From Rhodospirillales bacterium Ga0074136 (GTDB lineage Bacteria > Pseudomonadota > Alphaproteobacteria > Acetobacterales > Acetobacteraceae), in assembly GCA_001464375.1 (NCBI GenBank), contig LNEW01000220.1, forward strand, positions 1,228-65,227: 64,000 nt of DNA. Direction: 5' to 3'. The position numbers and the translations under genes are program-made. This document shows, in pieces, positions 8,000-55,290 of this stretch. Positions within the stretch are counted from its first letter, which is position 1. Each line of letters opens with the position of its first letter. The notes beneath the pieces are model-generated. The model saw nothing but the letters and a program-made list of their open reading frames with translations, searched no databases and was not told where the DNA came from.

Positions 8000-8001
8000 C
8001 T

Positions 8002-27342: not shown

Positions 27343-28149
27343 CTATGCCCAGGCTTCGTCGAGCGTCAGCGGCCGCGGGATCAGCCCCTGCGACGCGCAC
27401 CATCGCGAAGCGAGCTCAATCGCCGGCGCCAGGGCCTGCCGCGTCGTGGCAGCGGGACCGAAGATGCGCAGCAATTCGGCCATCACGGCGGCGTCCTGCG
27501 CGACCTCCGCGCGCACCACCACGAGGTGGTTCACCGGCACGAAGCCGTGACGTGACTCGAAGTCCCGCCCCGCCGCGGCGACATCCGGGAAGACCGGCCG
27601 GAATTCGTCGCCCGGCGGCAATTCCGCCCCGAAGATAGCCGCATCCAGCGCGCCGTCGCGCAGCATCGCCGTCATGTCGGCGCCGGCTGGCGCGCGGCGC
27701 GCGAAGGGCGGGTCGGTGAAGCCCGGCACATGGGCGTCCTCGAAGGTGGTCCAGGCGATGGATTTCGGTGCCACCCCGTGCGCGTCCGCCAGAACACCGC
27801 GCAGCCACATGCCGGTGGTCTGGCTGTAGGCGCGCACGCCGACACGCTTGCCCGCGAGGTCCGTCGGGCCACGGACCGGGCCATCGGCGCGGCACAGCAG
27901 CGCGCCTTCCTGGAAGCGCGCCGCCATCACCACAGGCAGCAGCATGATGGGAATGCCGGCCGCCTTGGCCATCAGGAAGGTGGCGATGGCCATCTCGCTG
28001 ACGTCGTAGCGCGCCTCGCGCACCATCGGCGCGAAGGCGCGGCTGATCGGCTTCACCGTGACGCGGTCGAGCCGCAGCAGATCGGACTCCGCCAGCGATG
28101 CCGTGTGCGGATAATCGCCAAGGGCTGCGGTGAGTACGCGCGCGCTCAC
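27343..28149 (-). CDS. periplasmic-binding-protein-fold (NMT1 / PhtD-like) protein without signal peptide
   Basis: 3' part of ORF 27343..28314. GTG at 28149 overlaps the stop of the upstream hydrolase (GTGA). VSARVLTAALGDYPHTASL...VKPISRAFAPMVREARYDVSEMAI... resembles cytoplasmic NMT1-like / dihydroxyphthalate-decarboxylase-like proteins. Function uncertain. Confidence 0.6.
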   Translation of the reverse strand: MSARVLTAALGDYPHTASLAESDLLRLDRVTVKPISRAFAPMVREARYDVSEMAIATFLMAKAAGIPIMLLPVVMAARFQEGALLCRADGPVRGPTDLAGKRVGVRAYSQTTGMWLRGVLADAHGVAPKSIAWTTFEDAHVPGFTDPPFARRAPAGADMTAMLRDGALDAAIFGAELPPGDEFRPVFPDVAAAGRDFESRHGFVPVNHLVVVRAEVAQDAAVMAELLRIFGPAATTRQALAPAIELASRWCASQGLIPRPLTLDEAWA

Positions 28150-28982
28150 GCGCCCACCTCGGCGAAGAAGGCCTCGACCTTCGCGTTGAAGGCTGCCGCG
28201 TGTTCGAAATGGCCCGAATGGCCGGCCCGTGGCAGCGGCGAGACGCGCGCGTCTGGAATGGCCGGCGCCATGCCTTGCGGGGCGAAGGGCGGGATCACCA
28301 CGTCCTCCTCGCACGGCACGAACATCACAGGCGTCTGCGCCGCCGCGAATTCCGCCGGCGGGCGATTGCGCGCGGCGTGCAGCCGCGCACGCACAGCCTC
28401 GCGGTCGAAGCCCTGCGAGAGCCCGTTGATGTGGGAATAGATCTGCGCCAGCGCCGGCTGTTCCTCGGCCATGCGCGCACCCGAGGCCGGCAGCATGTTG
28501 CGCGCCAGCAGGTCGGATCGTGCCTCGGCACTGGCCTTGCTCCAGGCCGCCAGGCGCGAACGCTCCGGCTCGCGCATCTGCCGCGGGTCGAGCGAGCCCG
28601 TGGTGGCAGCCAGCACCAGCGCCTTCACCCGCCCCGGGCGCAGCAGGGCATATTCCACGCCGGACCAGCCGCCCATCGACTGGCAGACCATGCGGATGTC
28701 ACCGAGCTTCAATTCATCGACCAGCGCCGCCACATCGCCGGCGTATTCCGCCGGATCCGGCCCGCCGGCCGGCGCGGTCGAAGGAAAGAAACCGCGGTGG
28801 GAGAAGGCGACGCAGGTGTAGCGCGGCGCGAAATGCGCCACCTGCTGCCACCACGAGAACAGGCAGCCGCCCAACCCATGCGCGAAGACGATCGCGGGTC
28901 CCTCGCCCGTGATCTCGTAGCGGATGCGCGCATCCGGTCGGTCGATCCAGCCGGCGCGGCGCGGTGGCGCGGTGAAGCTCAT
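28146..28982 (-). CDS. alpha/beta-fold hydrolase
   Basis: Inner start MSFTAPPRRAGW of ORF 28146..29198 (ATGA overlap with the PIG-L gene stop). HGLGG oxyanion motif, nucleophile elbow CQSMGG, C-terminal GHSGHFE. Confidence 0.8.
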   Translation of the reverse strand: MSFTAPPRRAGWIDRPDARIRYEITGEGPAIVFAHGLGGCLFSWWQQVAHFAPRYTCVAFSHRGFFPSTAPAGGPDPAEYAGDVAALVDELKLGDIRMVCQSMGGWSGVEYALLRPGRVKALVLAATTGSLDPRQMREPERSRLAAWSKASAEARSDLLARNMLPASGARMAEEQPALAQIYSHINGLSQGFDREAVRARLHAARNRPPAEFAAAQTPVMFVPCEEDVVIPPFAPQGMAPAIPDARVSPLPRAGHSGHFEHAAAFNAKVEAFFAEVGA

Positions 28983-29695
28983 GCGAGGCTCTCCACGACA
29001 TGCGGGAAGACGGACTGGTAGCCCTCGCCCCAAGTGATCGACTTGTCGGAGTTGCGCGCGGCCTGCGCGCCGCGCTGCTGCGCCACGCGCGTGTAGTACT
29101 CCCACAGGTGCTCCTGCCCGGCCATGCATTCGATGGCGGCGCGCTTCTGCGGCCAGGCGCTGCCGATATCGAGCAACACGTCGGGCTTCCAGCCGCATTG
29201 CTCGGGCTGGTGCGGTTCGAACAGGAAGACCGGCGGCGCACCCAGCACCTTCTCGCCCGGCTTGTGGCCATGCGCCTGCGCGGTGATGCGCGCATGCTGC
29301 GCGAAGTCCGTCACCGCCGGATGGTCGCGGTTGTAGATGTCTTCCTTCGAGTGCGTCAGCACGAAGGCCGGGTGGATGGCGCGATAGACATCGACCAGGC
29401 GGAACAGGGACTCAGTGGTCAGCGTGATCGGGTAGTCGCCCAGGTCCCAGAACTGGATGTCGTGCACGCCGAGCACCGCGGCCGCCTTCTTCGCCTCGAC
29501 CTCGCGCTCGGCCTTCACGCGTTCGAGCGTCATGCCCGGCACGCGCCACAGTTTCGCGGATTCGCCACGCTCGCCGTAGGACAGGCACACCACCGTGACC
29601 TTCCATCCCTTCGCGGCATGGAGCGCGATGGCGCCGCCGGCGCGCCAGACGAAATCGGCGGAATGGGCGGACACCACCAGGGCGGTCTTGGACAT
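28979..29695 (-). CDS. PIG-L / LmbE-family deacetylase
   Basis: 3' part of ORF 28979..31291 from MSKTALVVSAHSADFVWRAGGAI (the family's AHxDD-type motif). RBS GGAGGA upstream of ATG 29695. Confidence 0.8.
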   Translation of the reverse strand: MSKTALVVSAHSADFVWRAGGAIALHAAKGWKVTVVCLSYGERGESAKLWRVPGMTLERVKAEREVEAKKAAAVLGVHDIQFWDLGDYPITLTTESLFRLVDVYRAIHPAFVLTHSKEDIYNRDHPAVTDFAQHARITAQAHGHKPGEKVLGAPPVFLFEPHQPEQCGWKPDVLLDIGSAWPQKRAAIECMAGQEHLWEYYTRVAQQRGAQAARNSDKSITWGEGYQSVFPHVVESLA

Positions 29696-29794
29696 GCGGT
29701 TCCTCCAGCAGGACAGTCGGCGCCCAGTCTGGCGGGACACAGCGCGCCCGCCTAGGCTGGTTGAAACGGAAACCCCAGGAGCCGACCGCCCGCC

Positions 29795-31438
29795 ATGGCC
29801 AGCACGCCCGACACCTTCGACTACGTCATCGTCGGCGCCGGTGCCGCCGGGTCCATCCTGGCGGCGCGGCTGACCGAGGACCCGGGCGTGACGGTCTGCG
29901 TGTTGGAAGCCGGTCCGCCCGACCGCAACTTCTTCATCCACCTGCCCGCGGGCTTCATCAAGACGCTGGTTGACCCATCCGTCACCTGGCAGTTCAAGAC
30001 CGCGCCGACCGAGCGTACCGGCGGGCGCGCCATCGCGACCACGCAGGGGCGCACGCTGGGCGGGTCGTCCTCGGTGAATGGCATGATCTACAATCGCGGG
30101 CAGCCAAACGACCTGAATGCCTGGGCGCAGCGCGGCAATCGCGGCTGGGGTTATGCGGATTGCCTGCCCTACTACATGCGCACCGAAAAGCGCGTCGGCG
30201 CCGGGCGCGACGACCGCCGCGGGCGCGAGGGCGCGCTGCCGGTCACCGACATGGACTGGATCCACCCGCTCAGCGAGGCCTTCATCGAAGGCTGCATCGG
30301 CGCGGGCGTGCCACGTGCGCCGGACTACAACAGCGGCGACCAGGCCGGCGTGGGGTATTTCCAGCGCGCCATCCAGGGTGGCTGGCGCGTATCGGCCGCA
30401 CGCGCCTTCCTGCACCCGGCGATGGCACGCAAGGAGCTCGAGGTGCGAACCAACGCACGCGCCTGCGGCATCGTCTTCGAAGGCCGTCGCGCGGTCGGCA
30501 TCCGCTACCTGACCGCACGCGGCGCGCAGCCGGTCGAGGTGCGCGCGCGGCGCGAGGTGATCCTGTCCGCCGGCACGGTGAACACTGCGCGGCTGATGCA
30601 GGTGTCGGGCATCGGGCCGGCCTCGACGCTGGCGCGGATCGGCGTGCAGGTGTTCCACGACCTGCCGGTCGGCGAGAATTTCCGCGACCACTACGCGTCG
30701 CGCATCGTCATGCGCGCCAAGCCGGATACCGAGACACTGAACCAGCTCGCCCGCGGCTTCGGCCTGGTGAAGCAGCTGGCGCGCTGGGCGACCGGCAAGC
30801 CGAACATCCTGGCGACCGCGCCATCGCATGTGCACCTGTTCTGGAAGTCCTTCGAAGGGCTCGACGAGCCCGACCTGCAATGCGTGTTCACCCCCGGCTC
30901 CTATGCCGAGGGCAAGGTCTATGTGCTGGACGATTACCCGGGCTGCACCGCCGGCGCCTGGCAGCACCGCCCCGACAGCGTCGGCTGGGTGCGCGCGAAG
31001 ACCGCCGATGTCTTCGACGACCCCGAGATCCAGCCCAACTACCTGAGCGACGAGAACGACCGTCGCGTCCACCTGGGCGGCATGCGCCTGATCCGACGCC
31101 TGCTTCACACGCCGCAGATGATGCGCTTCCTGGAACGCGAGACGCTGCCCGGCCCGACCATCGAGCGCGATGACGAGTTGCTCGACTTCGCCTATCGCAA
31201 CGGCAGCACGACCTACCACCTCATCGGCACCTGCCGCATGGGGCCGGAGACCGACACCACCTCGGTGGTGAATGACCGGCTGCAGGTGCACGGGCTGCAG
31301 GGGCTGCGCGTGGTGGATGCGTCGGTGATGCCGTCCATGCCCTCGGCCAATACCTACGCCACCACCATGATGATCGCGGAGAAGGCGGCGGACTTCATCC
31401 GCGGCCGCGCGCCCCTGCCCGCGGCGGAAGCGGCGTGA
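29795..31438 (+). CDS. GMC-family FAD-dependent oxidoreductase (choline-dehydrogenase-like)
   Basis: 547-aa ORF: FDYVIVGAGAAGSILAARL (FAD GxGxxG), GRTLGGSSSVNGMIY, C-terminal HLIGTCRMG...VVDASVMP. Its stop overlaps the crtC GTG start (GTGA). Confidence 0.9.
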   Translation: MASTPDTFDYVIVGAGAAGSILAARLTEDPGVTVCVLEAGPPDRNFFIHLPAGFIKTLVDPSVTWQFKTAPTERTGGRAIATTQGRTLGGSSSVNGMIYNRGQPNDLNAWAQRGNRGWGYADCLPYYMRTEKRVGAGRDDRRGREGALPVTDMDWIHPLSEAFIEGCIGAGVPRAPDYNSGDQAGVGYFQRAIQGGWRVSAARAFLHPAMARKELEVRTNARACGIVFEGRRAVGIRYLTARGAQPVEVRARREVILSAGTVNTARLMQVSGIGPASTLARIGVQVFHDLPVGENFRDHYASRIVMRAKPDTETLNQLARGFGLVKQLARWATGKPNILATAPSHVHLFWKSFEGLDEPDLQCVFTPGSYAEGKVYVLDDYPGCTAGAWQHRPDSVGWVRAKTADVFDDPEIQPNYLSDENDRRVHLGGMRLIRRLLHTPQMMRFLERETLPGPTIERDDELLDFAYRNGSTTYHLIGTCRMGPETDTTSVVNDRLQVHGLQGLRVVDASVMPSMPSANTYATTMMIAEKAADFIRGRAPLPAAEAA

Positions 31439-32370
31439 GCGATCGCCCCTGGTCCTTCGACCAGCCCGTCGCGTCGCGCGGGTATCGCTGGTGGTATATC
31501 GATGCGCTGTCGGATGACGGCGCGCATGGCATCACCATCATCGCCTTCATCGGCACGGTCTTCTCGCCCTGGTATGCCTGGGCGCATCGCCGCGGCTCGG
31601 TCGATCCGGCCGAACACTGCTGCGTGAATGTCGCGCTGTACGGCACGCCGAAACGCTGGGCGATGACGGACCGGCGCGCCAGCGCGCTGACGCGCGATGC
31701 GGATACGCTCGCCATCGGCCCTTCGTCGCTGCACTGGGACGGGACAGCGCTGACGATCGATATCGAGGAGGTCACGGCGCCGATCCCCGCGCGCCTCGCA
31801 GGGCGCATCCGCGTCCTGCCCGATGCGCTGTCCGACCGGTCCTTCGTGCTGGATGGCGCGGGCCGCCACCGCTGGCAGCCGATCGCCGCACGCGCGCGGG
31901 TGGAAGTGTCGCTGACGCATCCCACGCTGACCTGGTCCGGCCCGGCCTATTTCGACACCAACACCGGCACCGCGCCGCTGGAGGATGATTTTTCCGAGTG
32001 GGACTGGTGCCGGGCACCCATGCGCGATGCGACGGCGGTGCTCTACAACGCCACGCGGCGCGACGGCACGTCGCAGTCCCTGGCGCTGCGCGTCGGGCGC
32101 GACGGCATAGTGGAGGATTTCGAACCGCCGCCGCCGGCGCAGATGGCACCCACGCTGTGGCGCCTGCCGCGGCCCACGCGCGCCGACGGCGGCCAGGCGA
32201 CCGCCACGCGCACGCTGGTCGATGCGCCCTTCTATTCGCGATCGGAGATCCGCACGCGCCTGCTCGGGCAGGACGCGACGGCAGTGCATGAATACCTGAA
32301 CCTCAGGCGGTTCCGCTCGCCGATCCTGTATTCGATGCTGCCCTTCCGGGTGCCGCGGACGCTGCGCTGA
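31435..32370 (+). CDS. crtC: carotenoid 1,2-hydratase (hydroxyneurosporene synthase)
   Basis: 311-aa ORF: ...GYRWWYIDALSDDGAHGITIIAFIGTVFSPWYAW...HCCVNVALYG... matches my memory of the CrtC family N-terminus. Lies in the crt neighbourhood. GTG start. Confidence 0.75.
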   Translation: MSDRPWSFDQPVASRGYRWWYIDALSDDGAHGITIIAFIGTVFSPWYAWAHRRGSVDPAEHCCVNVALYGTPKRWAMTDRRASALTRDADTLAIGPSSLHWDGTALTIDIEEVTAPIPARLAGRIRVLPDALSDRSFVLDGAGRHRWQPIAARARVEVSLTHPTLTWSGPAYFDTNTGTAPLEDDFSEWDWCRAPMRDATAVLYNATRRDGTSQSLALRVGRDGIVEDFEPPPPAQMAPTLWRLPRPTRADGGQATATRTLVDAPFYSRSEIRTRLLGQDATAVHEYLNLRRFRSPILYSMLPFRVPRTLR

Positions 32371-33499
32371 CCGGCGCATCGCCACGCCACCCGACATCGA
32401 GCGTCGCGACCTCCCCGAAGGTTGCGCGGCTCGCGATGGCGGCGCGGATGATGGGCCAGGTGGTGAAGCACATGGTCAGGAAAGGCATCGGGTCGCGCGC
32501 GCTCCATGTCACGTCGCGCGTCGAGACCAGCGTGCGGAGATTGTGCTGGAAGCCGCCGCCGCGGAACAACGAGAGCTGCGTCTCGGTCAGGCAGGAATAG
32601 AATTGCTGGAGGCGCGTCTCTGGCCGGAAACGCAGCGGGTGGCCAGCGTCGAGCACGGCGGGGGCCAGGTCCTCCGGCGCGAAGAAGTGCAGGCCGCTGG
32701 TGGTGCGCGGGTTGCACTCGATCGCGAAGGGGTGGCCCTGCTGGTCCAGCATGAAGTCGAAGGACAGGAAGCCGGTCCAGCGTGTTGCCGCCGCGTAGCC
32801 GCGCACGAAGCGCTCGATCAGCGGGTCCTCCACGCGTTCGAAGGCGATGCTGACCGAACCCGACTGCATCACGCCCTGATACACGACCGTGCCGCTGACC
32901 ACGCCGTCATGCACCAGCGAACAGGTACTGCGCTCCATGCCAAAGACATGGCCCTGCACGATCGCGGGCGCCGCGGGATCGGCGGCGGGCAGGTCAGCGC
33001 CGCGGCGGACGACGCGCACGCCGCGCCCCGAACAGGCATGCAGCGGCTTGACCACGACATCCTGGCGCTGCGCGAGCGCAGCGGCCTCGGTGCTGCCCAG
33101 CGGGTGGGTGGGTGGCACCGCGAGGCCCCAGCCATCCGACTGGACAGCGAAGCGGCCCTTGTCATGCGCGGCGAGCACCACCTCCTGCGGCATTGCGAAA
33201 AGCCGGGTGCGCGACGGCAGCCGCCCGTGCAGCGCGGCGACATGCACGACTTCCTCGGAGACCGGCAGCACGAGGTCGACGTCTTCCTCAGCCACCACGC
33301 GCAGCAGGTCGCACAGGTAGGCCTCGGCATCGCTCGCGGGGGCGGTCACGACGTGACTGCGGGCGACGGACTTCGAGGCCCCGGCCAGATGCCGGCGGAA
33401 GGGCTCCGCCACGATCACGCGCCAACCCGCGCCATGGAATGCGCGCGCCAGGTCCAGCGCCTTGGGCAGCCGCCCCAGCGTCAGCAGCACCGTGTTCAT
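32303..33499 (-). CDS. ATP-grasp domain ligase, substrate unknown
   Basis: 3' part of ORF 32303..33967 from MNTVLLTLGRLPKALDLARAFHGAGWRVIV. ATP-grasp core ...VVVKPLHACSGRGV...FLSFDFMLDQQGHPFAIECNPR. ATGA overlap with the P450 stop. Its 3' end overlaps the crtC 3' end by 68 nt (convergent). Confidence 0.8.
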   Translation of the reverse strand: MNTVLLTLGRLPKALDLARAFHGAGWRVIVAEPFRRHLAGASKSVARSHVVTAPASDAEAYLCDLLRVVAEEDVDLVLPVSEEVVHVAALHGRLPSRTRLFAMPQEVVLAAHDKGRFAVQSDGWGLAVPPTHPLGSTEAAALAQRQDVVVKPLHACSGRGVRVVRRGADLPAADPAAPAIVQGHVFGMERSTCSLVHDGVVSGTVVYQGVMQSGSVSIAFERVEDPLIERFVRGYAAATRWTGFLSFDFMLDQQGHPFAIECNPRTTSGLHFFAPEDLAPAVLDAGHPLRFRPETRLQQFYSCLTETQLSLFRGGGFQHNLRTLVSTRDVTWSARDPMPFLTMCFTTWPIIRAAIASRATFGEVATLDVGWRGDAPVSAASAAPGRAASNTGSASGTA

Positions 33500-34875
33500 G
33501 GCACCGGCGTCGTGGTGACCATGATCTGCCCGACCGGGCGCGTGGTCAGCCGGGCCGCGGGGCGCACCGTCTCCGGCGCTACCACGTGGAAGTCGAAGCG
33601 GCGGAACAGCCGCGCCACGAGCAGCACGGTTTCGACCTGCGCAAAGGCCGCGCCGGCACACACGCGGGGGCCGATCCCGAAGGGGATGTAGGCGCCGGTC
33701 GTCATCTCCGCCTCGCGCGAGGCATCGAAGCGGTCGGGGTCGAAGACGTGCGGGTTGCGCCAGTAGCTCTGGTGGCGGTGCAGGACCCAGGGCGCCACCA
33801 TGACCAGCGCGCCGCGCTTCACGCGGTAGCCGTCGAGCGACGTCGCCACGTTCGCCACTCGCGGCAGGAAGGTGATGGGCGGATACAGCCGTAGCGTCTC
33901 GCGGAAGATGTTGCGGATGAACGGCAGCTTGCGCGTGTGCTCGAAGGTGACGGGCCCATCGCCGCATACCGCATCCACTTCCCCGCGCAGGCGCGCGACC
34001 AACGCGGGCTGTATGGCCAGTATATAGAACACCCAGGTCAGAGCGCTGGCGCTGGTCTCGTGCCCCGCCAGGAACAGCACGCCGAGCTGGTCGATCAGTT
34101 CCTCGCGCGTGAAGGCACGTCCCTCACCGTCGCGCGCTTCGATCACCGCCTGGCAGATGTCGTCGAAGGACGCTCCGGCGGCGAGGTGCGTGTCGAGCAG
34201 CGCACCCAGGTGCCCGCGGATCAGCGCGCAGGCGTCCAGCACATGCTGCTTCTGCGGAATGCGCGTCCAGGCGCGATCCAGGATCAGGCGGCGGATCTCC
34301 ACCTGCGCGACCGAGCGTTCGAAATCGGTGAAGGCGTCGAAGACCTCGTGCGCCACCTGGCTTTCGAGGCTGGTCGAGAACACCGTGCGGCAGATGATGT
34401 CGGCCGTGAGGTGGCTCATCATCAGGTCGAGCGAGAACGGCGCGGTGCTGCGCGCCAGGGTTTCCTCGGTCGCCGCCACGCCCGCCTCCATCGCGGGGAA
34501 GGCGCGGTTCACGCGCATCATGGTGAGCGCCGGGTCGATCATGGCGCGCTGGCGCCGCCAGGTATCGCCGGAGGAGACGAAGATCGAATCGCCGATCAGC
34601 GGGTCGAGCGCTTCCACCATCAGGTCGGATTTCGGGAAGATGCCCTCGGGATCGGCCAACACATGCCGCACCAGATCGGGGCGATTGACGATGATGGTCG
34701 ATCGGCGCGACCAGCCGAGCGGGCCGATCGGCATGCGATAGGCCTCGGCGGGCAGCAGGCCCAGCAGGTTGCCTTCGCCTTCCATCATGGCGCGAATGAG
34801 AGCGATCACCGCGGGCAGCGACCGCGGGTGCGGCGGTTCGAAGGGTGCCCATGGAAGCGTGCGCGCGGCGCTCAT
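33496..34875 (-). CDS. cytochrome P450
   Basis: ORF 33496..34956, with a more likely start at MSAARTLPW (34875). I-helix FLAGHETSA, ExxR (ETLR), heme loop FGIGPRVCAG. Confidence 0.9.
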   Translation of the reverse strand: MSAARTLPWAPFEPPHPRSLPAVIALIRAMMEGEGNLLGLLPAEAYRMPIGPLGWSRRSTIIVNRPDLVRHVLADPEGIFPKSDLMVEALDPLIGDSIFVSSGDTWRRQRAMIDPALTMMRVNRAFPAMEAGVAATEETLARSTAPFSLDLMMSHLTADIICRTVFSTSLESQVAHEVFDAFTDFERSVAQVEIRRLILDRAWTRIPQKQHVLDACALIRGHLGALLDTHLAAGASFDDICQAVIEARDGEGRAFTREELIDQLGVLFLAGHETSASALTWVFYILAIQPALVARLRGEVDAVCGDGPVTFEHTRKLPFIRNIFRETLRLYPPITFLPRVANVATSLDGYRVKRGALVMVAPWVLHRHQSYWRNPHVFDPDRFDASREAEMTTGAYIPFGIGPRVCAGAAFAQVETVLLVARLFRRFDFHVVAPETVRPAARLTTRPVGQIMVTTTPVP

Positions 34876-34963
34876 GGCAGGCGCATCGAGAGCGGCGGCG
34901 CACCGCGGTTTCCTGCCCGTTTCACGGCCGTCGGGCTTCCCCTGCATCCGCGCCATTCCGTTG

Positions 34964-34985
34964 CTTGACAGCGATATCTGTCAAG
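34964..34985. promoter_or_regulatory. perfect 8-bp inverted repeat CTTGACAG-N6-CTGTCAAG in the divergent P450 / membrane-protein-crtD intergenic region (candidate operator with two opposed TTGACA hexamers)
   Basis: Read directly from the sequence: cttgacag cgatat ctgtcaag. Lies in a locally AT-richer gap. The half-sites are the same as the TGTCAA/TTGACA halves of the PpsR-type boxes further right, but in swapped order. Confidence 0.5.
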
Positions 34986-35021
34986 CCCGATTGTCGAATC
35001 AAAGCGCGAGGGCCATCGAGG

Positions 35022-35759
35022 ATGGAACTTCTCCTGTTCCACAGCCTGGTCGCCGCCCATATCGTCACGGGCGCGACGGGCGCTATCGCCTTCTGGGTGC
35101 CCGTGCTGGGCCGCAAGGGTGGCGTCAATCATCGCTGGTGGGGCCGGCTTTTCAATCGCTGCATGCTGATCACCGGCAGTCTTGCGATGGGCATGGCGAG
35201 CCTGACGCTGATCGACCCGATCGGCACGCATCCCCACCTGGAAGGGCGCTTCGACGAAGCGTTCCTGCGCGGCATCTTCGGATGGATGATGCTGACCACG
35301 GCGCTGCTGACGATCAACCTCGCCTGGTATGGCTGGCTTGCGGTGCTGAACAAGCGCGGCGGGCATGATCGCAACCGCACGCCACTGAACATCGCGCTGC
35401 AGTACATCCTGCTTGCGGCGTCGTTGAACTGCGCGCTGCAGGGCTGGCTGATCGGACAGCCGCTGATGTACGGCATCGCCGTGGTGGGTGTCGCGACGGT
35501 CGTGACCAACCTGCGCTTCCTCTGGGCGGCCGCGCCGGGGCCGACCTATTGGCTCAAGGAACACGTGAAGGCGTTGGTCGGCGCGGGCATCTCGGTCTAC
35601 ACGGCCTTCATGGCCTTCGGGTCGGTGCGCATCCTGCCGGAACTCGCGCTGCATCCGGTCATGTGGGCCATCCCCTGCGCCACGGGCATCGGCATCATCC
35701 TGTGGCACTGGCGCGCGGTGGACCGGCAATTCGCCGCGCGCCGCGCGGTCGCCGCCTGA
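35022..35759 (+). CDS. uncharacterised polytopic membrane protein (about 6-7 TM), probably co-transcribed with crtD
   Basis: Inner ATG of ORF 34845..35759: MELLLFHSLVAAHIVTGATGAIAFWVPVL... Repeated hydrophobic segments. Its stop is 6 nt before the crtD ATG. Confidence 0.7.
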   Translation: MELLLFHSLVAAHIVTGATGAIAFWVPVLGRKGGVNHRWWGRLFNRCMLITGSLAMGMASLTLIDPIGTHPHLEGRFDEAFLRGIFGWMMLTTALLTINLAWYGWLAVLNKRGGHDRNRTPLNIALQYILLAASLNCALQGWLIGQPLMYGIAVVGVATVVTNLRFLWAAAPGPTYWLKEHVKALVGAGISVYTAFMAFGSVRILPELALHPVMWAIPCATGIGIILWHWRAVDRQFAARRAVAA

Positions 35760-35765
35760 CCCTGC

Positions 35766-37295
35766 ATGGCTGAACCGCGCGTCATCGTGGTCGGCGCCGG
35801 CATGGGCGGGCTGGCCGCCGCGGCGGACCTGGCGCGGCGTGGGGCGCGCGTGACGGTGCTGGACCGTGCATCCGCGCCCGGCGGCAAGATGCGCCGCGTC
35901 GAGGTGGACGGCACCGGCATCGATGGCGGCCCGACAGTCTTCACGATGAAGTGGATCTTTGACGGCCTGTTCGGCGATGCGGGCCAGCGGGTCGAGGACC
36001 ACCTGCACCTGCACAAGGCGGAGATCCTGGCGCGACATGCCTGGCGGCGCGGCGGGCAGCTTGACCTGTTCGCCGATGTCACGCGTTCCGCCGAGGCGAT
36101 CGGCGACTTCGCCGGCGCGCGCGATGCCGCCGGGTATCGCGCCTTCTGCACGCGCGCGGCGGGCATCTACCGCACGCTGGTCGGGCCGTTCATCGCGTCG
36201 GAACGGCCTTCGCAACTCGACCTGGTGCGGCGCATCGGCTTCGCGCATGTCGACAGCCTGGTGCGCACGTCGCCTTTCGCCACGCTCTGGAACGCACTGG
36301 GCGATCACTTCACCGACCCGCGGCTGCGGCAGTTGTTCGCGCGCTACGCCACCTATGTCGGGTGTTCGCCCTTCCTGGCGCCGGCGACGCTGATGCTGAT
36401 CGCGCATGTGGAACAGGATGGCGTTTGGCTGGTGAAGGGGGGCATGCGGCGCGTGGCGGAGGCGGTGCGCAGCCTGGCGGAAGGCCAGGGTGCAACCTTC
36501 CGCTTCGACGCCGAGGTGCGTCGCATCCTGGTGGCGCGCGGCCGCGCCGCCGGCGTCGAGCTGGTCGATGGCGAACGCATCGAGGCCGATGCCGTGGTGT
36601 TCAACGGCGCGCCGGATGCTCTGGCGGCGGGGCTGCTGGGCGACGCCGCCCGCCCCGCGACCGAGCCCGTGCCGCGCGAATCCCGCACGCTCTCGGCCGT
36701 GACGTGGTGCGTGCACGCACCAACTGACGGCTTCACGCTCGATCACCACAACGTCTTCTTCGCCGAGGACTATCAGGCGGAGTTCGAGACCATCTTTCGC
36801 CGCCGCAGCATCGTTCAGGCGCCCACGGTCTATATCTGCGCGCAGGATCGGGGCGGTGCGGATCGCCCTGCCCCGGGCGCGCGCGAACGCCTGCTCCTGC
36901 TGGTGAACGCGCCGCCGGATGGCGACCGCGCGCCAATGGATGAAGCGGCAACGGAAGCCCATGCCGCGCGCGCTTTTGCCGTGCTGCGCGACTGCGGCCT
37001 GACGGTACGGCGCGAGGACGGCGCGGCGGTTGTCACCACGCCCGCCGGCTTCAATGCGCTGTTCCCGGCGACAGGCGGTGCGCTGTACGGACGGCTCGGC
37101 CATGGCTTCAACGGCAGTTTCGCACGACCGGGCGCGCGCAGCGCGATCCCCGGGCTGTATCTCGCCGGCGGCGGCGTGCATCCAGGGCCTGGCGTGCCGA
37201 TGGCAACGATGTCCGGGCGGCTCGCGGCGGCGCGGCTGCTGGAGGACCGCGCCGGGCGGCGGCGCAGCGTCATCGCGATGAAGGTCGGGCGGTAG
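35766..37295 (+). CDS. crtD: hydroxyneurosporene/methoxyneurosporene 3,4-desaturase
   Basis: 509-aa ORF: MAEPRVIVVGAGMGGLAAAADLARRG (FAD motif). Phytoene-desaturase-family C-terminus GLYLAGGGVHPGPGVPMA. CrtD-like rather than CrtI-like overall. Confidence 0.85.
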   Translation: MAEPRVIVVGAGMGGLAAAADLARRGARVTVLDRASAPGGKMRRVEVDGTGIDGGPTVFTMKWIFDGLFGDAGQRVEDHLHLHKAEILARHAWRRGGQLDLFADVTRSAEAIGDFAGARDAAGYRAFCTRAAGIYRTLVGPFIASERPSQLDLVRRIGFAHVDSLVRTSPFATLWNALGDHFTDPRLRQLFARYATYVGCSPFLAPATLMLIAHVEQDGVWLVKGGMRRVAEAVRSLAEGQGATFRFDAEVRRILVARGRAAGVELVDGERIEADAVVFNGAPDALAAGLLGDAARPATEPVPRESRTLSAVTWCVHAPTDGFTLDHHNVFFAEDYQAEFETIFRRRSIVQAPTVYICAQDRGGADRPAPGARERLLLLVNAPPDGDRAPMDEAATEAHAARAFAVLRDCGLTVRREDGAAVVTTPAGFNALFPATGGALYGRLGHGFNGSFARPGARSAIPGLYLAGGGVHPGPGVPMATMSGRLAAARLLEDRAGRRRSVIAMKVGR

Positions 37296-37308
37296 CCCGG
37301 GGCGCGCG

Positions 37309-38811
37309 TCAGGCCGTCCTGACGAAGGCCGCGCCTGCCGGCACCACCTGGTCGAGCAGCTTGGCCGAGGAGATCACCCCCGGCACGCCGGCGCCCGGAT
37401 GCGTGCCCGCGCCCACCAGGAACAGGTTCGCCACTTCCTCGCTGACATTGTGCGGGCGGAACCAGGCGCTCTGGAACAGTTGTGGTTCAAGGGCGAAGGC
37501 CGCGCCGTTCACCGAGAGCAGTCGGTCGCGGAAATCCTGCGGCGTCATGACGCGGGAAGTCACCAGCGCCTCGCCCAGGCCGGGCAGCACGGTGTCCTCC
37601 AGGCGCTTCTGGATCGCGGCGCGATAGGGCTCCGCCTTCGTTGCCCAATCCGTGCCGCTGCCCAGATGCGGCACCGGCGCCAGCACGTAGAAGGAATCGC
37701 AGCCCTCCGGCGCCAGCGACGGATCGGTGGCCGAGGGCCGGTGCAGGTACAGGCTGAAATCGTCCGACAGGTGCTTGCGCGTGAAGATGTCGCGCAGCAA
37801 TTCGCCGTAGCGCGGGCCGAGCACCATGGTGTGGTGATACACATCCTCGTAGCGCCGCTTCGTGCCGAAATACCAGACGAACAGGCTCATGGAGTACCGC
37901 GCGCGCGCGATCTTGCGGTCGGTCCAGCGGCGCCGCTTGTGGTGGCCGAGCAACTTCGAATAGGTCCAGGCCACGTCGGCATTCGAGACCACGATGTCGG
38001 CCGCGATCCGCTCGCCCGATTCCAGCGTCACGCCGGTGGCGCGGCCCTGGTCCACCTCGATGCGGGCGACCTCGGCATTGCAGCGCAGCGTGCCGCCCAA
38101 CCCATCGATCAGCCCGACCATGCCCTGCACCACCGCCCCCATCCCGCCCATCGCGTAGTGCACGCCGTGCATGCGTTCCAGATGCGCGATCAGGCAGTAG
38201 TAGGCCGTGGTGGTCAGCGGGTTGCCGCCGATCAGCAGCGGATGCTCATTCGAGAAGTAGTCGCTGACGCGCGAATAGACCGTGCGGTAGCCCTGCAGCC
38301 GGATCATGTCCGGCGCCGCCTTCAGCAGCGTGCCGAGGCGATGGAACGGGCGGTCGGCGAGCTCCTCGAAGGCGACCTTGTAGATGCGCTCGCTCTCGAG
38401 GATGAAGCGTTCGAAGCCGGCCAGGTCCTCGGGCGCGATGCGGCGGATCTCGGCGCGCGTCGCCTCGATGTCGGCGGAACAGCGCATCACCGTGCCGTCG
38501 TCGAAGCGGATGAAGTAGAACGGGTTCATCTCCCGCAGGTCGACGTCATCCGACAGACGCCGTCCCGCCAGCGCCCACAGTTCCTCGAGCAGGTAGGGCG
38601 CGGTGATGATGGTGGGGCCGGCATCGAAGGTGAAGCCGTCCTGGCGGAACACATAGGCGCGCCCGCCCGACGCATCGAGCTTCTCCAGCACCGTCACGCG
38701 CCAGCCGCGCGCACCCAGGCGGATCGCGGCAGCCAGGCCGCCGAAGCCGGATCCGATCACCACCGCATGCGGGCGTGTGTCGCGGGGTGTCTCGTTGCCG
38801 TCGCGCGCCAT
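37309..38811 (-). CDS. crtI: phytoene desaturase (apparently carrying an 8-aa internal deletion)
   Basis: 500-aa ORF: HAVVIGSGFGGLAAAIRL...GGRAYVFRQDGFTFDAGPTIIT...SLFVWYFG...FSLYLHRPSATDPSLAPEGC...NLFLVGAGTHPGAGVPGV. See the finding on the missing LRQAFSFH block. Confidence 0.9.
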   Translation of the reverse strand: MARDGNETPRDTRPHAVVIGSGFGGLAAAIRLGARGWRVTVLEKLDASGGRAYVFRQDGFTFDAGPTIITAPYLLEELWALAGRRLSDDVDLREMNPFYFIRFDDGTVMRCSADIEATRAEIRRIAPEDLAGFERFILESERIYKVAFEELADRPFHRLGTLLKAAPDMIRLQGYRTVYSRVSDYFSNEHPLLIGGNPLTTTAYYCLIAHLERMHGVHYAMGGMGAVVQGMVGLIDGLGGTLRCNAEVARIEVDQGRATGVTLESGERIAADIVVSNADVAWTYSKLLGHHKRRRWTDRKIARARYSMSLFVWYFGTKRRYEDVYHHTMVLGPRYGELLRDIFTRKHLSDDFSLYLHRPSATDPSLAPEGCDSFYVLAPVPHLGSGTDWATKAEPYRAAIQKRLEDTVLPGLGEALVTSRVMTPQDFRDRLLSVNGAAFALEPQLFQSAWFRPHNVSEEVANLFLVGAGTHPGAGVPGVISSAKLLDQVVPAGAAFVRTA

Positions 38812-38825
38812 GCGTCAGGCCTCCG

Positions 38826-38861
38826 GAAAGAAAAAGGGGGGAGCGGACATGCCGCTCCCCC
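38826..38861 (-). terminator. Rho-independent-type terminator after pufC
   Basis: On the minus strand: GGGGGAGCGG-catgt-CCGCTCCCCC (10-bp perfect stem) followed by TTTTTCTTTCC. Lies between the pufC stop (38906) and the crtI RBS/ATG (38811). Confidence 0.7.
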
Positions 38862-38905
38862 TACCTACCCCCGACGGCAACCGGGGAGTGGCGTCGCCGC
38901 CGTCA

Positions 38906-40012
38906 TCACTGCGGCACGAGAGCTGCCGACCGGGCAGGCCCACCGCTGATTGCGCGCAGTTCGGGATAGTCCTGGAGCATCGGGGCGCCGTTGAGCGGCT
39001 TGTTCAGTCCCCGATGGCAAGTCGAGCAGTTCACCATCAGCGCATCGCCGGCCGGACCCAGGCGCGCGACGCGCGGACCGGCTTCCGGCGGCCCATTCGG
39101 ATTGGCCGCCCAGAGCGGTTGCAGGGGCGTGATGTAGTTGACGTTGATCTCCCGCACCATGCGGATGCCGTGCCAGGCGCTTGCGCGCGCGGGAGGGCTG
39201 CTTTCCCAGGCCGAGAAGGACCGGCTGTTATGGCAGAAGGTGCAATTGACCCCGAGGCTCGAGGACATGTGCATCATCAGCGCGTAGGTGCCCTCGGTCT
39301 GCTGGATGCTGGTGGTGTTGTAGCGCGGCAGCGAAGTCTGGCTGATCACGCGGATATTGGTGTCGCGCAGCAGGTAGGGCGTGAACGGATCGACCGGCAT
39401 GGACGACAGGCCGGCCGCCGGCGAGACCCGGTTCTGCCCGGTCTGCGCCTGCAGGCCATGCTGCGGCAGCACCGGCGCGGACCACACCGCGGACGGCACC
39501 GGCTGGCCGCGGTGGCAGGTGTAGCAGGTGACGCCAGCGCCTTCGGTGCCGCCGAAATGCGGCACCCAGTCATTGTTGATGGTGCGCACCATCTGCAGCA
39601 TCCGGCGCGAGACCACCTTCGTATAGACCTCGTCCGAGGCCATGTTCTCGATGTTATGGCAGTAGGCGCAGCCATTGCCGGCGTCACGCACCTCCTGCGG
39701 CACGACCCATTCCGTCATGGTCTGCATGATGCGCAGGAACTGCGCATTCGACAGGTCACCCAGGAGCTGGACGTTCTGGTACAGCGTGCTCGCGCGGTCC
39801 CCGTCATTGTCGGCGGCCTCGGGCGCCTCGGGCACCTGGTTGGCCGCCACCGTGGTGGCCCGCAGGCGCGGATTGACCACCGTGCCCATGGACGTGCCGC
39901 GGAAGCCGCCCTGCGTGGTTTCCACCGGGGGCCGTTCGAAGGTCGGCACCAGGATCGCCGCGAGGACGAGGGCGCCGACAGCCGCCCCCACCTTGAGGTT
40001 GAAGGTGCTCAT
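38906..40012 (-). CDS. pufC: photosynthetic reaction-centre tetraheme cytochrome c subunit
   Basis: Inner start [22 protein letters not shown] of ORF 38906..40177. Four CxxCH motifs (CAYCH, CYTCH, CTFCH, CSTCH). ATGA overlap with the pufM stop. Confidence 0.93.
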
Positions 40013-40989
40013 CGCGCCGCTCCCTGCGTGATGGAAGGATCGACCGTCGCCGGCCACGTCGTCGGGTAGGCCGGGGCGAAGTGGCGATCGACAGCCCAGA
40101 GGTACCAGTTGTCGACCACCGTGCCGGTCAGCAGGATGCCGATGCCCCCCGCGATGGGACACAGCACCGCGAACCACCAGGCCCAGCGATGGATGCTCTC
40201 GAAGGTGGCGTTGAAGCCCATTGTCCAGCGCCAGAACAATCCACCGCGTTCGGCCGCGGTGCCGCGGTTCAGCGTGAGCTCGATCTCGCGCTCACCGCCG
40301 TAGCGGCCCAGGGCCAGGATCGTCGCGCCGTGCATCGCGAACAGCAGGGTCGACCCGTACAGGAAGACGATGCTGAGCGCATGGAAGGGATTGTAGAACA
40401 GGTTCCCGTACCGGATCGAGAACGCCGCGGTCCAATCGAGGTGCGGGAAGATGCCGAAGGGCACCGCCTCGCTCCAGGAGCCCATGGCGATCGGGCGGAT
40501 GAAGCCCAGCACCAGGTACAACCAGATGGCGGCGGCGAAGGCCCAGGCCACATGCGTGCCCATCCCCAGCGCGCGTGCCCGGCGGTAGGTGCGCACCCAC
40601 CAAAGCAGGATCGACAGGGTCAGGAAGAAGCCTGCCATCAGCCACCAGCCGCCTTCGCGCAGCGGCGGGAAGCGCAGCCCCCATTGCGGGCCCGGCGGCT
40701 CGAGCGCCAGCCAGAACAGCTGCCGGATGAACTGCACCGGGTTCCAGTTCACCGAGGCGAGCATGTTCAGCCCGATGATCTCGAAGGCGATGAAGCCGAA
40801 CAGCAGCGACAGGATGCCGGTGTAGCCGAGGTAGATCGGCCCGATCTGCGCATCGCCGAGCCGCCCGAACAGATGGACTTCCGTCGGCTTGCCGTCGCGC
40901 GCGTCATTGTCGGGACCGAGCGGGATGCCCGGGTAGGGGCTCGGTCCGCGGACCTGCACCCGGGTGAAGATGTTTTGGTATTCGGCCAT
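40009..40989 (-). CDS. pufM: photosynthetic reaction-centre M subunit
   Basis: 326-aa ORF: [16 protein letters not shown]...[17 protein letters not shown]...[30 protein letters not shown]...[11 protein letters not shown]. Confidence 0.98.
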
Positions 40990-41011
40990 GGTGTCCGCCC
41001 TTTCCTTCGCG

Positions 41012-41836
41012 TCAGGACCAGATCGGCAGGTTCAGCCACCAGCCCCACCATTCGGGCCAGCCGCGCGTCCAGAAGGGACCGCTGATGACAATGCACACGG
41101 CGCTCCAGAACCCGGCCGAGAGTGCCAGGAACAGCCCCAGGCGGTGGATGCCCAGCGTGCCGATCGAGTAGCCGATGAAGTCGCGGAAGAAGGTGTTCTC
41201 GTGCTCGGGCGACTTCACCGGCTCGCCTTCCGGCGGGTTCAGGGCCGAGAGCACCAGGCCACCATGCAGCGACAGCGCGAAGGTCGTCGTGAAGAAGAAC
41301 GACACCGCGATCATGTGCGCCGGGTTGTAGTGGAAGTGCAGGTACTGGTAGCCGACATTGGAAACCCAATCGAGGTGGCTCCAGATGCCGTAGGGGAACG
41401 CGTGCCCCCAACCGCCCATCAGCACGGGGCGGATCACCACCAGCGTGATGTAGGCGAAGACCGCCACGCCGTAGGCAATCGGGATGTGGTAGCCCATGCC
41501 GAGCTTTCGGCTGATCTCCGCCTGGCGCAACGCCCAGGAGACGAAGGCGCCGATCGCACAGATGGTGATCATCTGCCACAGCCCGCCTTCGCGCATCGGC
41601 GCGAGACGCAGCCCGTAGGAGAGATCCGGCGGCGCGATGTTGATCAGCCACGGGTTCCAGGTGCCCTGGATCGCCGCGCCCATCAGGATCAGCCCCGTGC
41701 CCACGAGGCTGAAGAAAATCGTGGTGACGCCGAAGAAGCCGACCCAGAACGGTCCGACCCAGAAGTCGAACAGATCGCCGCCGACCAGGGTGCCACCGCG
41801 GACGCGGTATTTGCGCTCGAAACTCAGCATGGCCAT
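41012..41836 (-). CDS. pufL: photosynthetic reaction-centre L subunit
   Basis: 274-aa ORF: [36 protein letters not shown]...[16 protein letters not shown]...[13 protein letters not shown]. Confidence 0.98.
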
Positions 41837-41900
41837 CGCTTCAACTCCTCCCTCCGGCGGGTGCGTCCCGCCTTCCGGTCACGGCCTTCTTCGGATGTGC

Positions 41901-41928
41901 GGGCGAGGCCCCGTGCGGGGCCTCGCCC
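41901..41928 (-). other. intercistronic mRNA stem-loop between pufA and pufL
   Basis: Perfect 12-bp stem gggcgaggcccc-gtgc-ggggcctcgccc. Same position as the puf mRNA hairpins known to stabilise the pufBA segment in Rhodobacter. Confidence 0.75.
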
Positions 41929-41960
41929 AGTCCGCCGCTATGCGGCGTGGGTCGCGGGTA

Positions 41961-42140
41961 TCAGCCCCCGACCCGCTGGCCGGGCACGAAGGTCGGCGTC
42001 GTCGCGCACCAACCCAGGTGGTCGCAGTAGCGCGGCGAGCTGAGCACGGCGAAGTGAATGACCGCCGCAACGGCCACCACACCAGCCGCGCCGAGGAAAC
42101 CCACGCGACGTGCGTCGATCACCATCCAGATCTTATGCAT
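41961..42140 (-). CDS. pufA: light-harvesting 1 (B870-type) alpha polypeptide
   Basis: Below the ORF-track size cut-off; own translation: MHKIWMVIDARRVGFLGAAGVVAVAAVIHFAVLSSPRYCDHLGWCATTPTFVPGQRVGG (59 aa). Canonical K/RIW..DPRR-like N-terminus and BChl-ligand His in IHF. Confidence 0.9.
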   Translation of the reverse strand: MHKIWMVIDARRVGFLGAAGVVAVAAVIHFAVLSSPRYCDHLGWCATTPTFVPGQRVGG

Positions 42141-42167
42141 GCTCTATTTCCCTTTCCCGTGCCGGCT

Positions 42168-42344
42168 TCAGAAGAAGCGCCAGTCGGGCGGGACCATCTG
42201 GCCGGTGTAGACCAGTGGCCTCCAGAGCCAGACGAGGATATGAGCGCCCATGGAGGCGAAGACCGCGAAAACCCAGCCCTGGACAACCAGGGAATGGACT
42301 TCGCGGGCTTGCTCCTCCGTCAGACGCGTACGTGCTTCGGTCAT
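42168..42344 (-). CDS. pufB: light-harvesting 1 (B870-type) beta polypeptide
   Basis: Own translation: MTEARTRLTEEQAREVHSLVVQGWVFAVFASMGAHILVWLWRPLVYTGQMVPPDWRFF (58 aa). RBS GGAGG 7 nt upstream. LTEEQAxExH and AHxLxWxWRP motifs. Confidence 0.9.
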   Translation of the reverse strand: MTEARTRLTEEQAREVHSLVVQGWVFAVFASMGAHILVWLWRPLVYTGQMVPPDWRFF

Positions 42345-42480
42345 TGGGAGACCTCCACAGTCGCCTTGCGGCGGTTACCGCGCATATCCCGCGCGGCTGG
42401 GATCGCCCGGACGGCAAGCCGCCCTGGTCGAGTGGTGGCGTGCGCCGCGAGGCGGGCACGCGATGGGGTCCGGAGCGACG

Positions 42481-43917
42481 TCACACGCCCTCCAGTTCAA
42501 GGCTGAGCGCCACGCGCCCGGCGGTGACGCTATCTTCCTGCGCCGCGCGCGCGTCACGTTCGATGCGTTCGCGCAGGCGCTTGGCGGCCGAGATGCGCAG
42601 CAGGAAGGGTTCGCTCTCGACCAGGCGGTCGAGCAGCGCGACCGCCTCGGGCTCCCAGCGTTCGCTCGGCCGCGCCGGCGTCGGTTCCACCTTGTCCATC
42701 TCGGTCGCGAGCGGAAGAATGTGGAACAGCGCGTCGAACAGCGCGTTGCAGTATTCCTGCACGACGTAGGTCGCGCCGGCGTAGCCCATGAAGGGCGTGC
42801 CGGTGGCGCGGCGGATGATCGCGCCTGGGAAGGATGCCGGGATGTAGGCGGCGCGGCAGCCGGCTTCCTGCGCGTACATCCGTTCGTTGAAGGACCCGAA
42901 GATCACCAGCGACGGCTTGGCCTTGATGGCGTCGCGCACCGCCTGGTTGTCGGGCTTCTCGCCGGGCTTGCGCGCGAAGGAGAAGGCGCATGGCACGCCC
43001 ATCTCATCCGACAGGAAGCGCGTCAGGCCGCGCGTGTAGGTCTCGGTCGCGTGCACGCCGAAGGCGGCGGTGGCGAAGAAATCCTGCGTGACGGACCGCC
43101 AGAGGTCCCAGATCGGCTTGATGGTGGAGTGCTTCTCGCGCTCGATGAAAGGCTCGGCGTCGAGGCCGGTGAGCTCGCCCAGCTTGCGCAGGAAATTCGT
43201 GGTGGCGAAGATCCCGAAGGGCGCCATCAGGTAGGGGCGCTCCAGGGTCTCGCACAGCCGCCGCCCGAACTCCCGGTACATGCAGACGTTCACATCGGCA
43301 TCGGGCAGCTTGCCGATGTCCTCGACATGGCTGCCGAGCGGGAAGACCAGGTTGATCTCGCACCCGATGCCCTCGACCAGCCTGCGGATCTCCGCGAGGT
43401 CCGAGGGCATGTTGAAGGTGCCGTAGATCGGCCCGATGATGTTGACGCGCGGACGCTCGCCATCCTTGCGGACACGCGGCTTGATCTTGCCGCGCTTGGC
43501 GCCGAATTCGGTCCACAGCCAGTTGATGGCGCGGTCGGCGGATTGCCACTGGTCCTCGTCGATGGTGCGCGGGATGAAGCGCTGCAGGTTCGATCCCTGC
43601 GGCGTGACACCGCCGCCGATCATCTCGGCGATTGACCCGGTCACCACCACCGCGGGCAGGTCTGGGTCCTGCGTGGCGGCGGCGCGCTTCATCGGGCCTT
43701 CGGTGCCGGTCTGCGACAGCGCGCCTTCATCCAGGCCGGTCACCACGATCGGCAGTTCATGCGGCGGCAGCGCATCGGTGTAGTGCAGCACCGCCGTCAC
43801 CGGCAGGTTCTCGCAGCCGACCGGCCCGTCGATGATCACGCGCAGCCCGCGCACGGCGGAGAAGGCGTAGACCGCGCCCCAGTAGCCCCCTGCCCGGTCG
43901 TGATCGAGGACGAGCAT
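42481..43917 (-). CDS. bchZ: chlorophyllide a reductase subunit Z
   Basis: Inner start [22 protein letters not shown] of ORF 42481..44340. Nitrogenase NifK/BchB-like; position bchXYZ-puf. Confidence 0.93.
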
Positions 43918-43919
43918 GC

Positions 43920-47356: not shown

Positions 47357-47382
47357 ATCGGCCCTCCCTCGAGCGCGTTAGA

Positions 47383-47426
47383 TGTCAGCGTAGAATGACG
47401 TAAATTACTGTCAAGCTATTCTGACA
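47383..47426. promoter_or_regulatory. bchC promoter region with two PpsR/CrtJ-type palindromes 8 bp apart
   Basis: Perfect TGT-N12-ACA at 47409..47426 (TGTCAAGCTATTCTGACA) and a near-perfect one at 47383..47400 (TGTCAGCGTAGAATGACG). Strongly AT-rich gap. TTGACA lies inside the upstream palindrome when read on the minus strand. Same architecture as the Rhodobacter bchC promoter. Confidence 0.75.
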
Positions 47427-47438
47427 CTTTAAAGCGCG

Positions 47439-48590: not shown

Positions 48591-48599
48591 GCGGCAGTC

Positions 48600-49466: not shown

Positions 49467-49555
49467 CGTCTGACCTTCCCCTCCGGCGTGACGACCCCGT
49501 GGCGTCGCCCGGCGACGAGGGCCGAAGCCTGTCGTCGCTTATTGTCGCTTCATAC

Positions 49556-50329: not shown

Positions 50330-50333
50330 CGCG

Positions 50334-55287: not shown

Positions 55288-55290
55288 CTC

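Follow-up and report, generated by a model that had tools for sequence, protein, structure and literature searches.

This report concerns the junction between two genes of Rhodospirillales bacterium Ga0074136, one encoding an FAD-dependent oxidoreductase of the GMC family, the other (crtC) encoding carotenoid 1,2-hydratase. The stop codon of the former overlaps the start codon of the latter. The junction lies in a stretch of 64,000 nucleotides from contig LNEW01000220.1, referred to as the window, which has a G+C content of 70%. The features discussed below are as follows (positions are those of the window):

27343..28149, in the block divergent from the GMC gene: orf268, kept beside the GMC gene in crtC-less relatives according to synteny
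28146..28982, in the block divergent from the GMC gene: alpha/beta hydrolase (Pfam PF00561)
28979..29695, minus strand: PIG-L/LmbE-family deacetylase (Pfam PF02585), first gene of the divergent block
29696..29794, no strand: divergent intergenic region between the PIG-L and GMC genes, candidate site of a promoter/operator for GMC(-crtC) transcription
29795..31438, plus strand: GMC-family FAD oxidoreductase, choline-dehydrogenase-like, 547 amino acids, ATG start (PF00732 and PF05199)
31435..31438, plus strand: GTGA overlap, GTG being the crtC start and TGA the GMC stop, read from the sequence
31435..32370, plus strand: crtC, carotenoid 1,2-hydratase, 311 amino acids, GTG start (NF045922, PF27123)
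32303..33499, minus strand: ATP-grasp gene, in an operon with the P450 gene and convergent to crtC
33496..~34947, minus strand: cytochrome P450 gene, in an operon with the ATP-grasp gene
35022..35759, plus strand: orf245, no family match, precedes crtD
35766..37295, plus strand: crtD (NCBIfam NF045637, 678 bits)
53117..54406, minus strand: DUF3422 gene, ortholog kept in N. eburnea
58148..59401, minus strand: hemA, 5-aminolevulinate synthase (TIGR01821, 644 bits), between bchI and puhE

The two open reading frames and the GTGA at 31435-31438 are as the original prediction had described them. The overlap was compared in 10 Roseomonas/Neoroseomonas genomes of the window's clade and is found at the same site in all of them, as GTGA in seven and as ATGA in three. 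The proposed operon-type, stop/start-coupled arrangement of GMC and crtC is borne out by this conservation. A GMC-CrtC fusion and a frameshift artefact were both considered and are ruled out, as the 10 independent assemblies agree. A 4-nucleotide overlap as such is not unusual in the window, where at least nine other same-strand gene pairs have one (at 19759, 28146, 28979, 33496, 40009, 53117, 54403, 61658 and 63122).

Position 31435 was also correctly taken as the start of crtC. It is the sole in-frame candidate, as the next ATG, GTG or TTG in the crtC frame does not come before residue 77. In three relatives, ATG is found in place of GTG at the same position, and the N-terminus is conserved. 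A start at residue 77 would cut into conserved sequence, because the protein matches the NCBIfam model from residue 35 onwards. Within residues 8-25 (FD..GY.WWY.DAL), F8, D9, G16, Y17, W19-Y21 and D23-L25 are nearly invariant in homologs from the whole family. CrtC homologs across the family have 309-325 amino acids, with a query coverage of 97-100%. In the 10 genomes, codons 2-35 have 7, 6 and 23 variable sites at codon positions 1, 2 and 3, respectively. This pattern is the signature of a translated region, and by this measure the N-terminus of CrtC is under purifying selection. In the public databases, two CrtC annotations are shortened, P0130 from R. nitratireducens PWR1 (287 amino acids) and P0175 from N. 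rubea (248 amino acids). Their late starts drop nearly invariant residues and hide the overlap with the GMC gene (compare loci L018 and L006). In a distant metagenome contig (L164, with a CrtC that is 53% identical), the start of crtC (3947..4924) overlaps the stop of a different upstream reading frame of 449 amino acids (2601..3950), again as GTGA. This case suggests that crtC may generally tend to be the second, coupled member of a gene pair.

About 170 related loci were compared. For the GMC gene, one genome per species was used, which gave 80 loci with orthologs that are 73-96% identical, all from Acetobacteraceae. For crtC, 88 loci were collected by look-ups of CrtC homologs and by a metagenome scan. 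By their GMC protein, the nearest named relatives of the window are Roseomonas/Neoroseomonas species (Acetobacteraceae), and an identical GMC protein is encoded on an activated-carbon metagenome contig.

At seven of the 80 GMC loci (L001-L006 and L018), crtC directly follows the GMC gene, with the remaining cluster genes after it. The same left neighbors, without crtC, are found at 30 loci (L007-L017, L019-L033, L035, L037, L039 and L049). There, the GMC proteins are 77-88% identical and the divergent hydrolase/orf268 block (with or without PIG-L) is present on the left, while the GMC stop is followed by convergent hemA, a membrane protein gene or a CoA-transferase gene. A GMC gene that keeps the divergent block where crt genes are lacking had been named in the original prediction as a finding that would refute it, and these 30 loci, which lack crtC, show just that. 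The other 43 loci have neither neighborhood and represent non-carotenoid contexts. For example, the GMC gene follows flgF-flgG-flgA-flgH in Roseococcus, Sediminicoccus and Rubritepida, and it is the last gene of an epoxide-hydrolase/zinc alcohol dehydrogenase/FAA-hydrolase operon in Belnapia, Craurococcus, Paracraurococcus and Roseicella. In Paracraurococcus lichenis, the GMC gene (L090) and crtDC (L084) are not within 6-8 kb of each other, and the two loci do not overlap. The GMC gene is also kept in Siccirubricoccus and Crenalkalicoccus, which are reported to be without photosynthetic traits (PMC10715153). Within Neoroseomonas, identity to the GMC protein of the window is 87-96% where crtC is linked and 86-88% where it is not, and because these values are alike there is no sign of neofunctionalization. 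The original prediction had suggested a survey of whether the coupling recurs in related genomes; it proved to be confined to the clade of the window. A conserved crt association across taxa thus fails for GMC, which is joined to crtC at seven of 80 GMC loci and three of 88 crtC loci, all from one subclade. In freshwater Roseomonas metagenome-assembled genomes, a second GMC paralog (~40% identical) is found a few kilobases upstream of the ortholog, encoded on the minus strand (L019-L025, L027, L030-L032, L035, L037, L039 and L049, at about 1700..4800).

Seen from crtC, the usual upstream partner is a different one. The same-strand gene that precedes crtC codes for a CrtD/CrtI-family desaturase at 57 of the 88 loci. 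A GMC gene is found in this position at three (L086, L091 and L092), all from the window's clade and with a CrtC that is at least 78% identical. Another gene or an intergenic region precedes crtC at 19 loci, and the contig ends at nine. The stop of crtD and the start of crtC form an ATGA overlap in Paeniroseomonas aquatica, Paracraurococcus lichenis and Roseomonas sp. F4, and they overlap by one base (TGA and ATG) in a Roseococcus metagenome-assembled genome. Six loci (L087, L088, L097, L100, L121 and L159) have two crtD paralogs. A divergent one is located in front of crtC and reaches 513-560 bits on NF045637 (cutoff 580), while the canonical one follows orf245 and reaches 624-660 bits. The two copies are at 6398..7876 and 15303..16835 in L087, and at 6541..8001 and 12455..13948 in L088. 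The window's clade has a single crtD, which is the canonical copy after orf245 (678 bits). From the two-copy relatives and this single copy, it follows that the GMC gene probably stands where a crtD-family partner has been lost. The C-terminal tail of the GMC protein (AAEAA, then stop) was compared, as a possible descendant of the former crtD end, to that of CrtD from L083 (GEAA, then stop), but this is a short region of GC-rich alanine codons.

The module consisting of crtC, the ATP-grasp and P450 genes and orf245 is found without a GMC gene in other genera and in metagenomes, at about 30 of the 88 loci collected for crtC (examples are L083, L084, L087 and L088). In these loci, crtC is usually preceded by a crtD-family gene and never by a GMC gene. 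The original prediction had connected the P450 to the GMC enzyme as the source of a hydroxymethyl substrate; that connection is not supported, as the P450 module travels with crtC in other genera where GMC is not part of it. One may speculate that the P450 and the carboxylate-ligating ATP-grasp enzyme convert a carotenoid methyl group into an acid, which is then conjugated. In Paracraurococcus lichenis (L084), the ATP-grasp/P450/orf245 module has no pigment-complex genes nearby. In the window, crtC shares its last 68 nucleotides with the 3' end of the convergent ATP-grasp gene (32303..32370), and a convergent overlap of 26-38 nucleotides is likewise present in L083 and L084.

The genes from crtC rightwards are a photosynthesis gene cluster, of which crtC is the outermost gene on the GMC side. 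To the right of orf245 and crtD, the genes are all on the minus strand: crtI, pufCML and bchZYXC; further right an O-methyltransferase gene, crtE, bchJ, bchE, crtB, the DUF3422 gene, bchO, bchD and bchI; and, at the right-hand end, hemA, puhE, acsF, puhB and puhA. On the left, orf268 is followed outwards by genes for an amidohydrolase, a zinc alcohol dehydrogenase, a solute-binding protein, a cupin and an M20 peptidase.

The edge of this cluster coincides with an indel. Similarity between crtC-linked and unlinked relatives extends up to the GMC stop codon and ends there. Next after GMC, N. lacus, N. marina, N. oryzicola and N. terrae have a convergent 5-aminolevulinate synthase gene, and in the crtC-less relatives the stop of this hemA is 0-140 nucleotides from the GMC stop. 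N. oryzicola, in which GMC and hemA adjoin at a scaffold end (L009), is nevertheless reported to possess pufCLM (PMC10715153). The hemA gene of the window is 84-90% identical to the GMC-adjacent gene in L007, L010, L011 and L014. Since the GMC stop abuts the hemA stop in the crtC-less relatives, the region 31435..58147 (crtC to bchI) is one clean indel. Where this segment is absent, hemA is the sole cluster gene left beside GMC, to which N. eburnea adds the DUF3422 gene. In that species, the gene (L010, 11775..13076) is located between GMC and hemA; it is an ortholog of 53117..54406 in the window (76% identity) and seems to be left over from the loss of the cluster. In a neighbor-joining tree of the GMC protein, the crtC-linked sequences form successive basal, paraphyletic branches, and the unlinked ones form one derived clade. 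The ancestor of the Acetobacteraceae is viewed as phototrophic (PMC10715153). Given the tree, this view of the ancestor and the remnant in N. eburnea, we infer as the simplest history that the GMC-crtC junction arose once and that a subclade subsequently lost the cluster, with GMC and hemA left behind.

The GMC gene is predicted to code for an intact flavoenzyme. The protein matches PF00732 (GMC_oxred_N; 7.6e-46, residues 8-300) and PF05199 (GMC_oxred_C; 1.9e-38, residues 393-528), and it has the FAD motif GxGxxG as GAGAAG (residues 14-19). The histidine of its YHLIGTCRMG segment aligns with that of YHPVGTVRMG in choline oxidase (2jbv), and the asparagine of its SANTYATTMM segment aligns with that of VNPNITVMM in the same enzyme; we take these choline oxidase residues to be the catalytic H466 and N510. 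The best solved relatives are the chloramphenicol oxidase CmO (8b7s, 311 bits) and an oxygen-dependent choline dehydrogenase (9lq0, 309 bits), followed by choline oxidases, alcohol oxidases and hydroxymethylfurfural (HMF) oxidase. An assignment as BetA was rejected, as the protein scores below both cutoffs (TIGR01810: 431 bits, cutoff 732; PRK02106: 503 bits, cutoff 605) and there are no bet neighbors. For this branch of the GMC family, a small polar or aromatic alcohol would be the default expectation for the substrate. Judged from its domains and its distribution, the protein is an FAD-dependent alcohol or choline-type dehydrogenase for a small-molecule substrate, encoded by a resident, family-wide conserved gene of the Roseomonas clade.

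CrtC matches NCBIfam model NF045922 with 6e-96 and 321 bits over model positions 1-274 of 278, which is below the 400-bit cutoff of this Rhodobacter-type equivalog. A match to Pfam PF27123 (CrtC) is precomputed for the identical protein as well as for all of its homologs. The family assignment rests on these two sources, because a local Pfam profile search gave no CrtC match, even at E=1. Four residues (H145, W147, Y172 and D174) are invariant in 15 homologs, with a spacing of 2/25/2. The catalytic residues of Rubrivivax CrtC are H239, W241, Y266 and D268 (PMC4717167), and their spacing is the same, as compared by spacing and not by direct alignment.

The intergenic region upstream of the GMC gene (99 bp) contains two blocks, TCTGGCGG (29728..29735) and GCCTAGGCT (29750..29758), which are kept in all 15 aligned sequences, from relatives with and without crtC. 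The blocks are 14 nucleotides apart, and their TGGCGG and TAGGCT cores are 17 nucleotides apart. This pair may function as a promoter or as the site of a regulator. As it is the same with and without crtC, the GMC transcription unit seems to be unchanged by the fusion. A scan of 29400..35200 for the sigma-70 consensus and for intrinsic terminators showed nothing near the junction or in 29696..29794, although such a scan is uninformative at 70% GC. PpsR-type palindromes were searched as TGT-N12-ACA and TGTCA-N8-TGACA with at most two mismatches, and no PpsR/CrtJ-type palindrome was found near GMC or crtC. Perfect copies of TGTCA-N8-TGACA occur at 47409..47426 (upstream of bchC), 49556..49573 (near crtE/bchJ) and 52066..52083 (upstream of crtB), and two overlapping degenerate ones (34966/34979; 34966..34996) are present in the divergent intergenic region between the P450 gene and orf245. 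With no intergenic region in front of it, crtC has no space upstream for a terminator or a promoter between the two genes. Predicted pairing energies between the Shine-Dalgarno (SD) sequence and the anti-SD sequence are weak or absent at the GMC-crtC junctions (+1.9 to -5.0 kcal/mol), compared to -7.8 to -10.9 kcal/mol at the crtD-crtC junctions. In the crtC-linked genomes, the last 60 GMC codons show no excess of synonymous conservation (0.61-0.71 versus a mean of 0.735), which counts against a conserved embedded element.

We consider it probable (at about 0.75) that the junction is a case of operon capture, a lineage-specific accident of gene order at the cluster edge that brought together GMC and crtC from unrelated pathways. 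In the ancestor of one Roseomonas/Neoroseomonas subclade, the crtD-family partner upstream of crtC would have been lost, and the start of crtC would then have been fused onto the GMC stop codon. Along with the crtD partner, crtC would largely have lost its ribosome-binding site. Its transcript would now start in the GMC promoter region and read through into crtC, with ribosomes terminating at the GMC TGA and re-initiating at the overlapping GTG to produce CrtC. On this narrower point, the view in the original prediction that the two genes are almost certainly co-translated is a reasonable expectation. Co-transcription and re-initiation are the most likely mode of expression as judged from the sequence, because crtC has no intergenic region of its own, little or no SD and no PpsR-type operator nearby. 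The coupling is, on the genomic evidence, an expression arrangement with no sign of a common pathway.

It would also be conceivable that the overlap is incidental, with crtC having its own promoter in the 3' part of the GMC gene and being translated independently, without co-regulation or coupling. In photosynthesis gene clusters, it is common for a promoter to lie inside the preceding gene, a weak GGAAG/GGCGG stretch is found 6-10 nucleotides upstream of the crtC start in the window and in four relatives, and the later starts annotated by NCBI in some orthologs (P0130 and P0175) would fit as well. These shorter versions, however, remove nearly invariant residues. Neither a promoter-like nor a PpsR-like site was found in the GMC 3' part, where the synonymous sites of the last 60 codons are also not conserved above the gene average, and the overlap is kept in L005 (-1.7 kcal/mol) and L086 (+1.9 kcal/mol), which are essentially without SD. 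We thus regard an independently expressed crtC as unlikely. Still less probable is that the GMC enzyme was recruited as a carotenoid-modifying oxidase, for instance one that converts a P450-made hydroxymethyl group into the aldehyde of a rhodopinal-like product, and that it is co-translated with CrtC for this reason. The attraction of this idea is due to the genes that lead to rhodopinal, which are still unknown according to a review (PMC10604819). Other points in its favor are the overlap in 10 genomes, the presence of a P450 gene inside the crt cluster, and the ability of GMC enzymes such as CmO, choline oxidase and HMF oxidase to oxidize primary alcohols. The same review lists no GMC enzyme in the spheroidene and spirilloxanthin pathways, in agreement with the original prediction, which knew of none in these canonical carotenoid pathways of purple bacteria. 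The inference drawn from the coupling, that it points to a carotenoid-oxidizing GMC enzyme, does not stand up to the comparison of loci, as equally identical orthologs occur without crtC at the 30 loci with the same left neighbors and the 43 in other contexts. Nor does the GMC protein diverge faster in crtC-linked genomes. Where the P450/ATP-grasp/orf245/crtC module occurs elsewhere, a crtD-family or other gene is found before crtC, never GMC, and the gene is retained by Siccirubricoccus and Crenalkalicoccus despite their reported lack of photosynthetic traits. A literature search on GMC together with crtC or carotenoid clusters found no link, and a paper on Sediminicoccus offered no details on carotenoid genes. 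An extended version, in which GMC and P450 jointly act as a carotenoid alcohol oxidase (methyl to hydroxymethyl to aldehyde, the rhodopinal branch), the scattered orthologs of pink Roseomonas also act on carotenoids and the coupling to CrtC reflects a common pathway, appears to us the least probable of all, and very improbable in itself.

Several points weigh against operon capture as formulated above. A weak, non-conserved promoter inside the GMC 3' end is possible, consensus scans being uninformative at 70% GC. The strict conservation of the overlap over ~20% CrtC divergence could mean that there is selection for co-expression. The substrate of the GMC enzyme is not identifiable from sequence. 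Many crtC-less relatives are still pink and produce carotenoids, so that the lack of crtC beside GMC is formally compatible with a carotenoid substrate. As to whether the cluster was lost or gained, the evidence consists of a neighbor-joining tree of one protein and one remnant gene.

If operon capture is correct, the clade is a natural example of this process at the margin of a photosynthesis gene cluster, with crtC seemingly dependent on an unrelated gene for its transcription and its translation. The formation of hydroxy-carotenoids in these aerobic phototrophs may then follow the regulation of GMC. The case also calls for caution, as a 4-nucleotide stop/start overlap shows operon organization, not common biochemistry; read as a pathway link, it would have mis-assigned the GMC flavoenzyme to carotenoid synthesis. 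The comparison of linked and unlinked relatives documents, in addition, what looks like the stepwise decay of a photosynthesis gene cluster.

Among known systems, the GMC enzyme resembles BetA, choline oxidase and CmO in its two-domain signature, with an N-terminal GxGxxG and a C-terminal His and Asn, and it aligns over its full length with CmO (8b7s) and choline dehydrogenase (9lq0) at ~310 bits. It differs from BetA by scores below the NCBIfam cutoffs and by the lack of betB/betI or choline-transport neighbors. A 4-nucleotide stop/start overlap with a weak SD is the classic arrangement for termination and re-initiation. The junction is similar to that of bacterial operons coupled by ATGA or GTGA in its 4-nucleotide overlap, its lack of intergenic space and its weak or absent downstream SD. 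Unlike the usual operons of this type, it connects genes that seem to be functionally unrelated and to have been joined secondarily at a cluster edge. The closest counterpart is the crtD-crtC pair of purple bacteria and other Acetobacteraceae, in which crtC is likewise the downstream gene with an overlapping start, as ATGA or GTGA (L083, L084, L089 and many metagenome loci). The window differs from this pair in that a non-carotenoid GMC gene takes the upstream position of the CrtI-family desaturase, the SD within the upstream gene is largely lost and the sole crtD is found after orf245. GMC-crtC is thus a lineage-specific variant of the crtD-crtC arrangement and is ordinary in kind.

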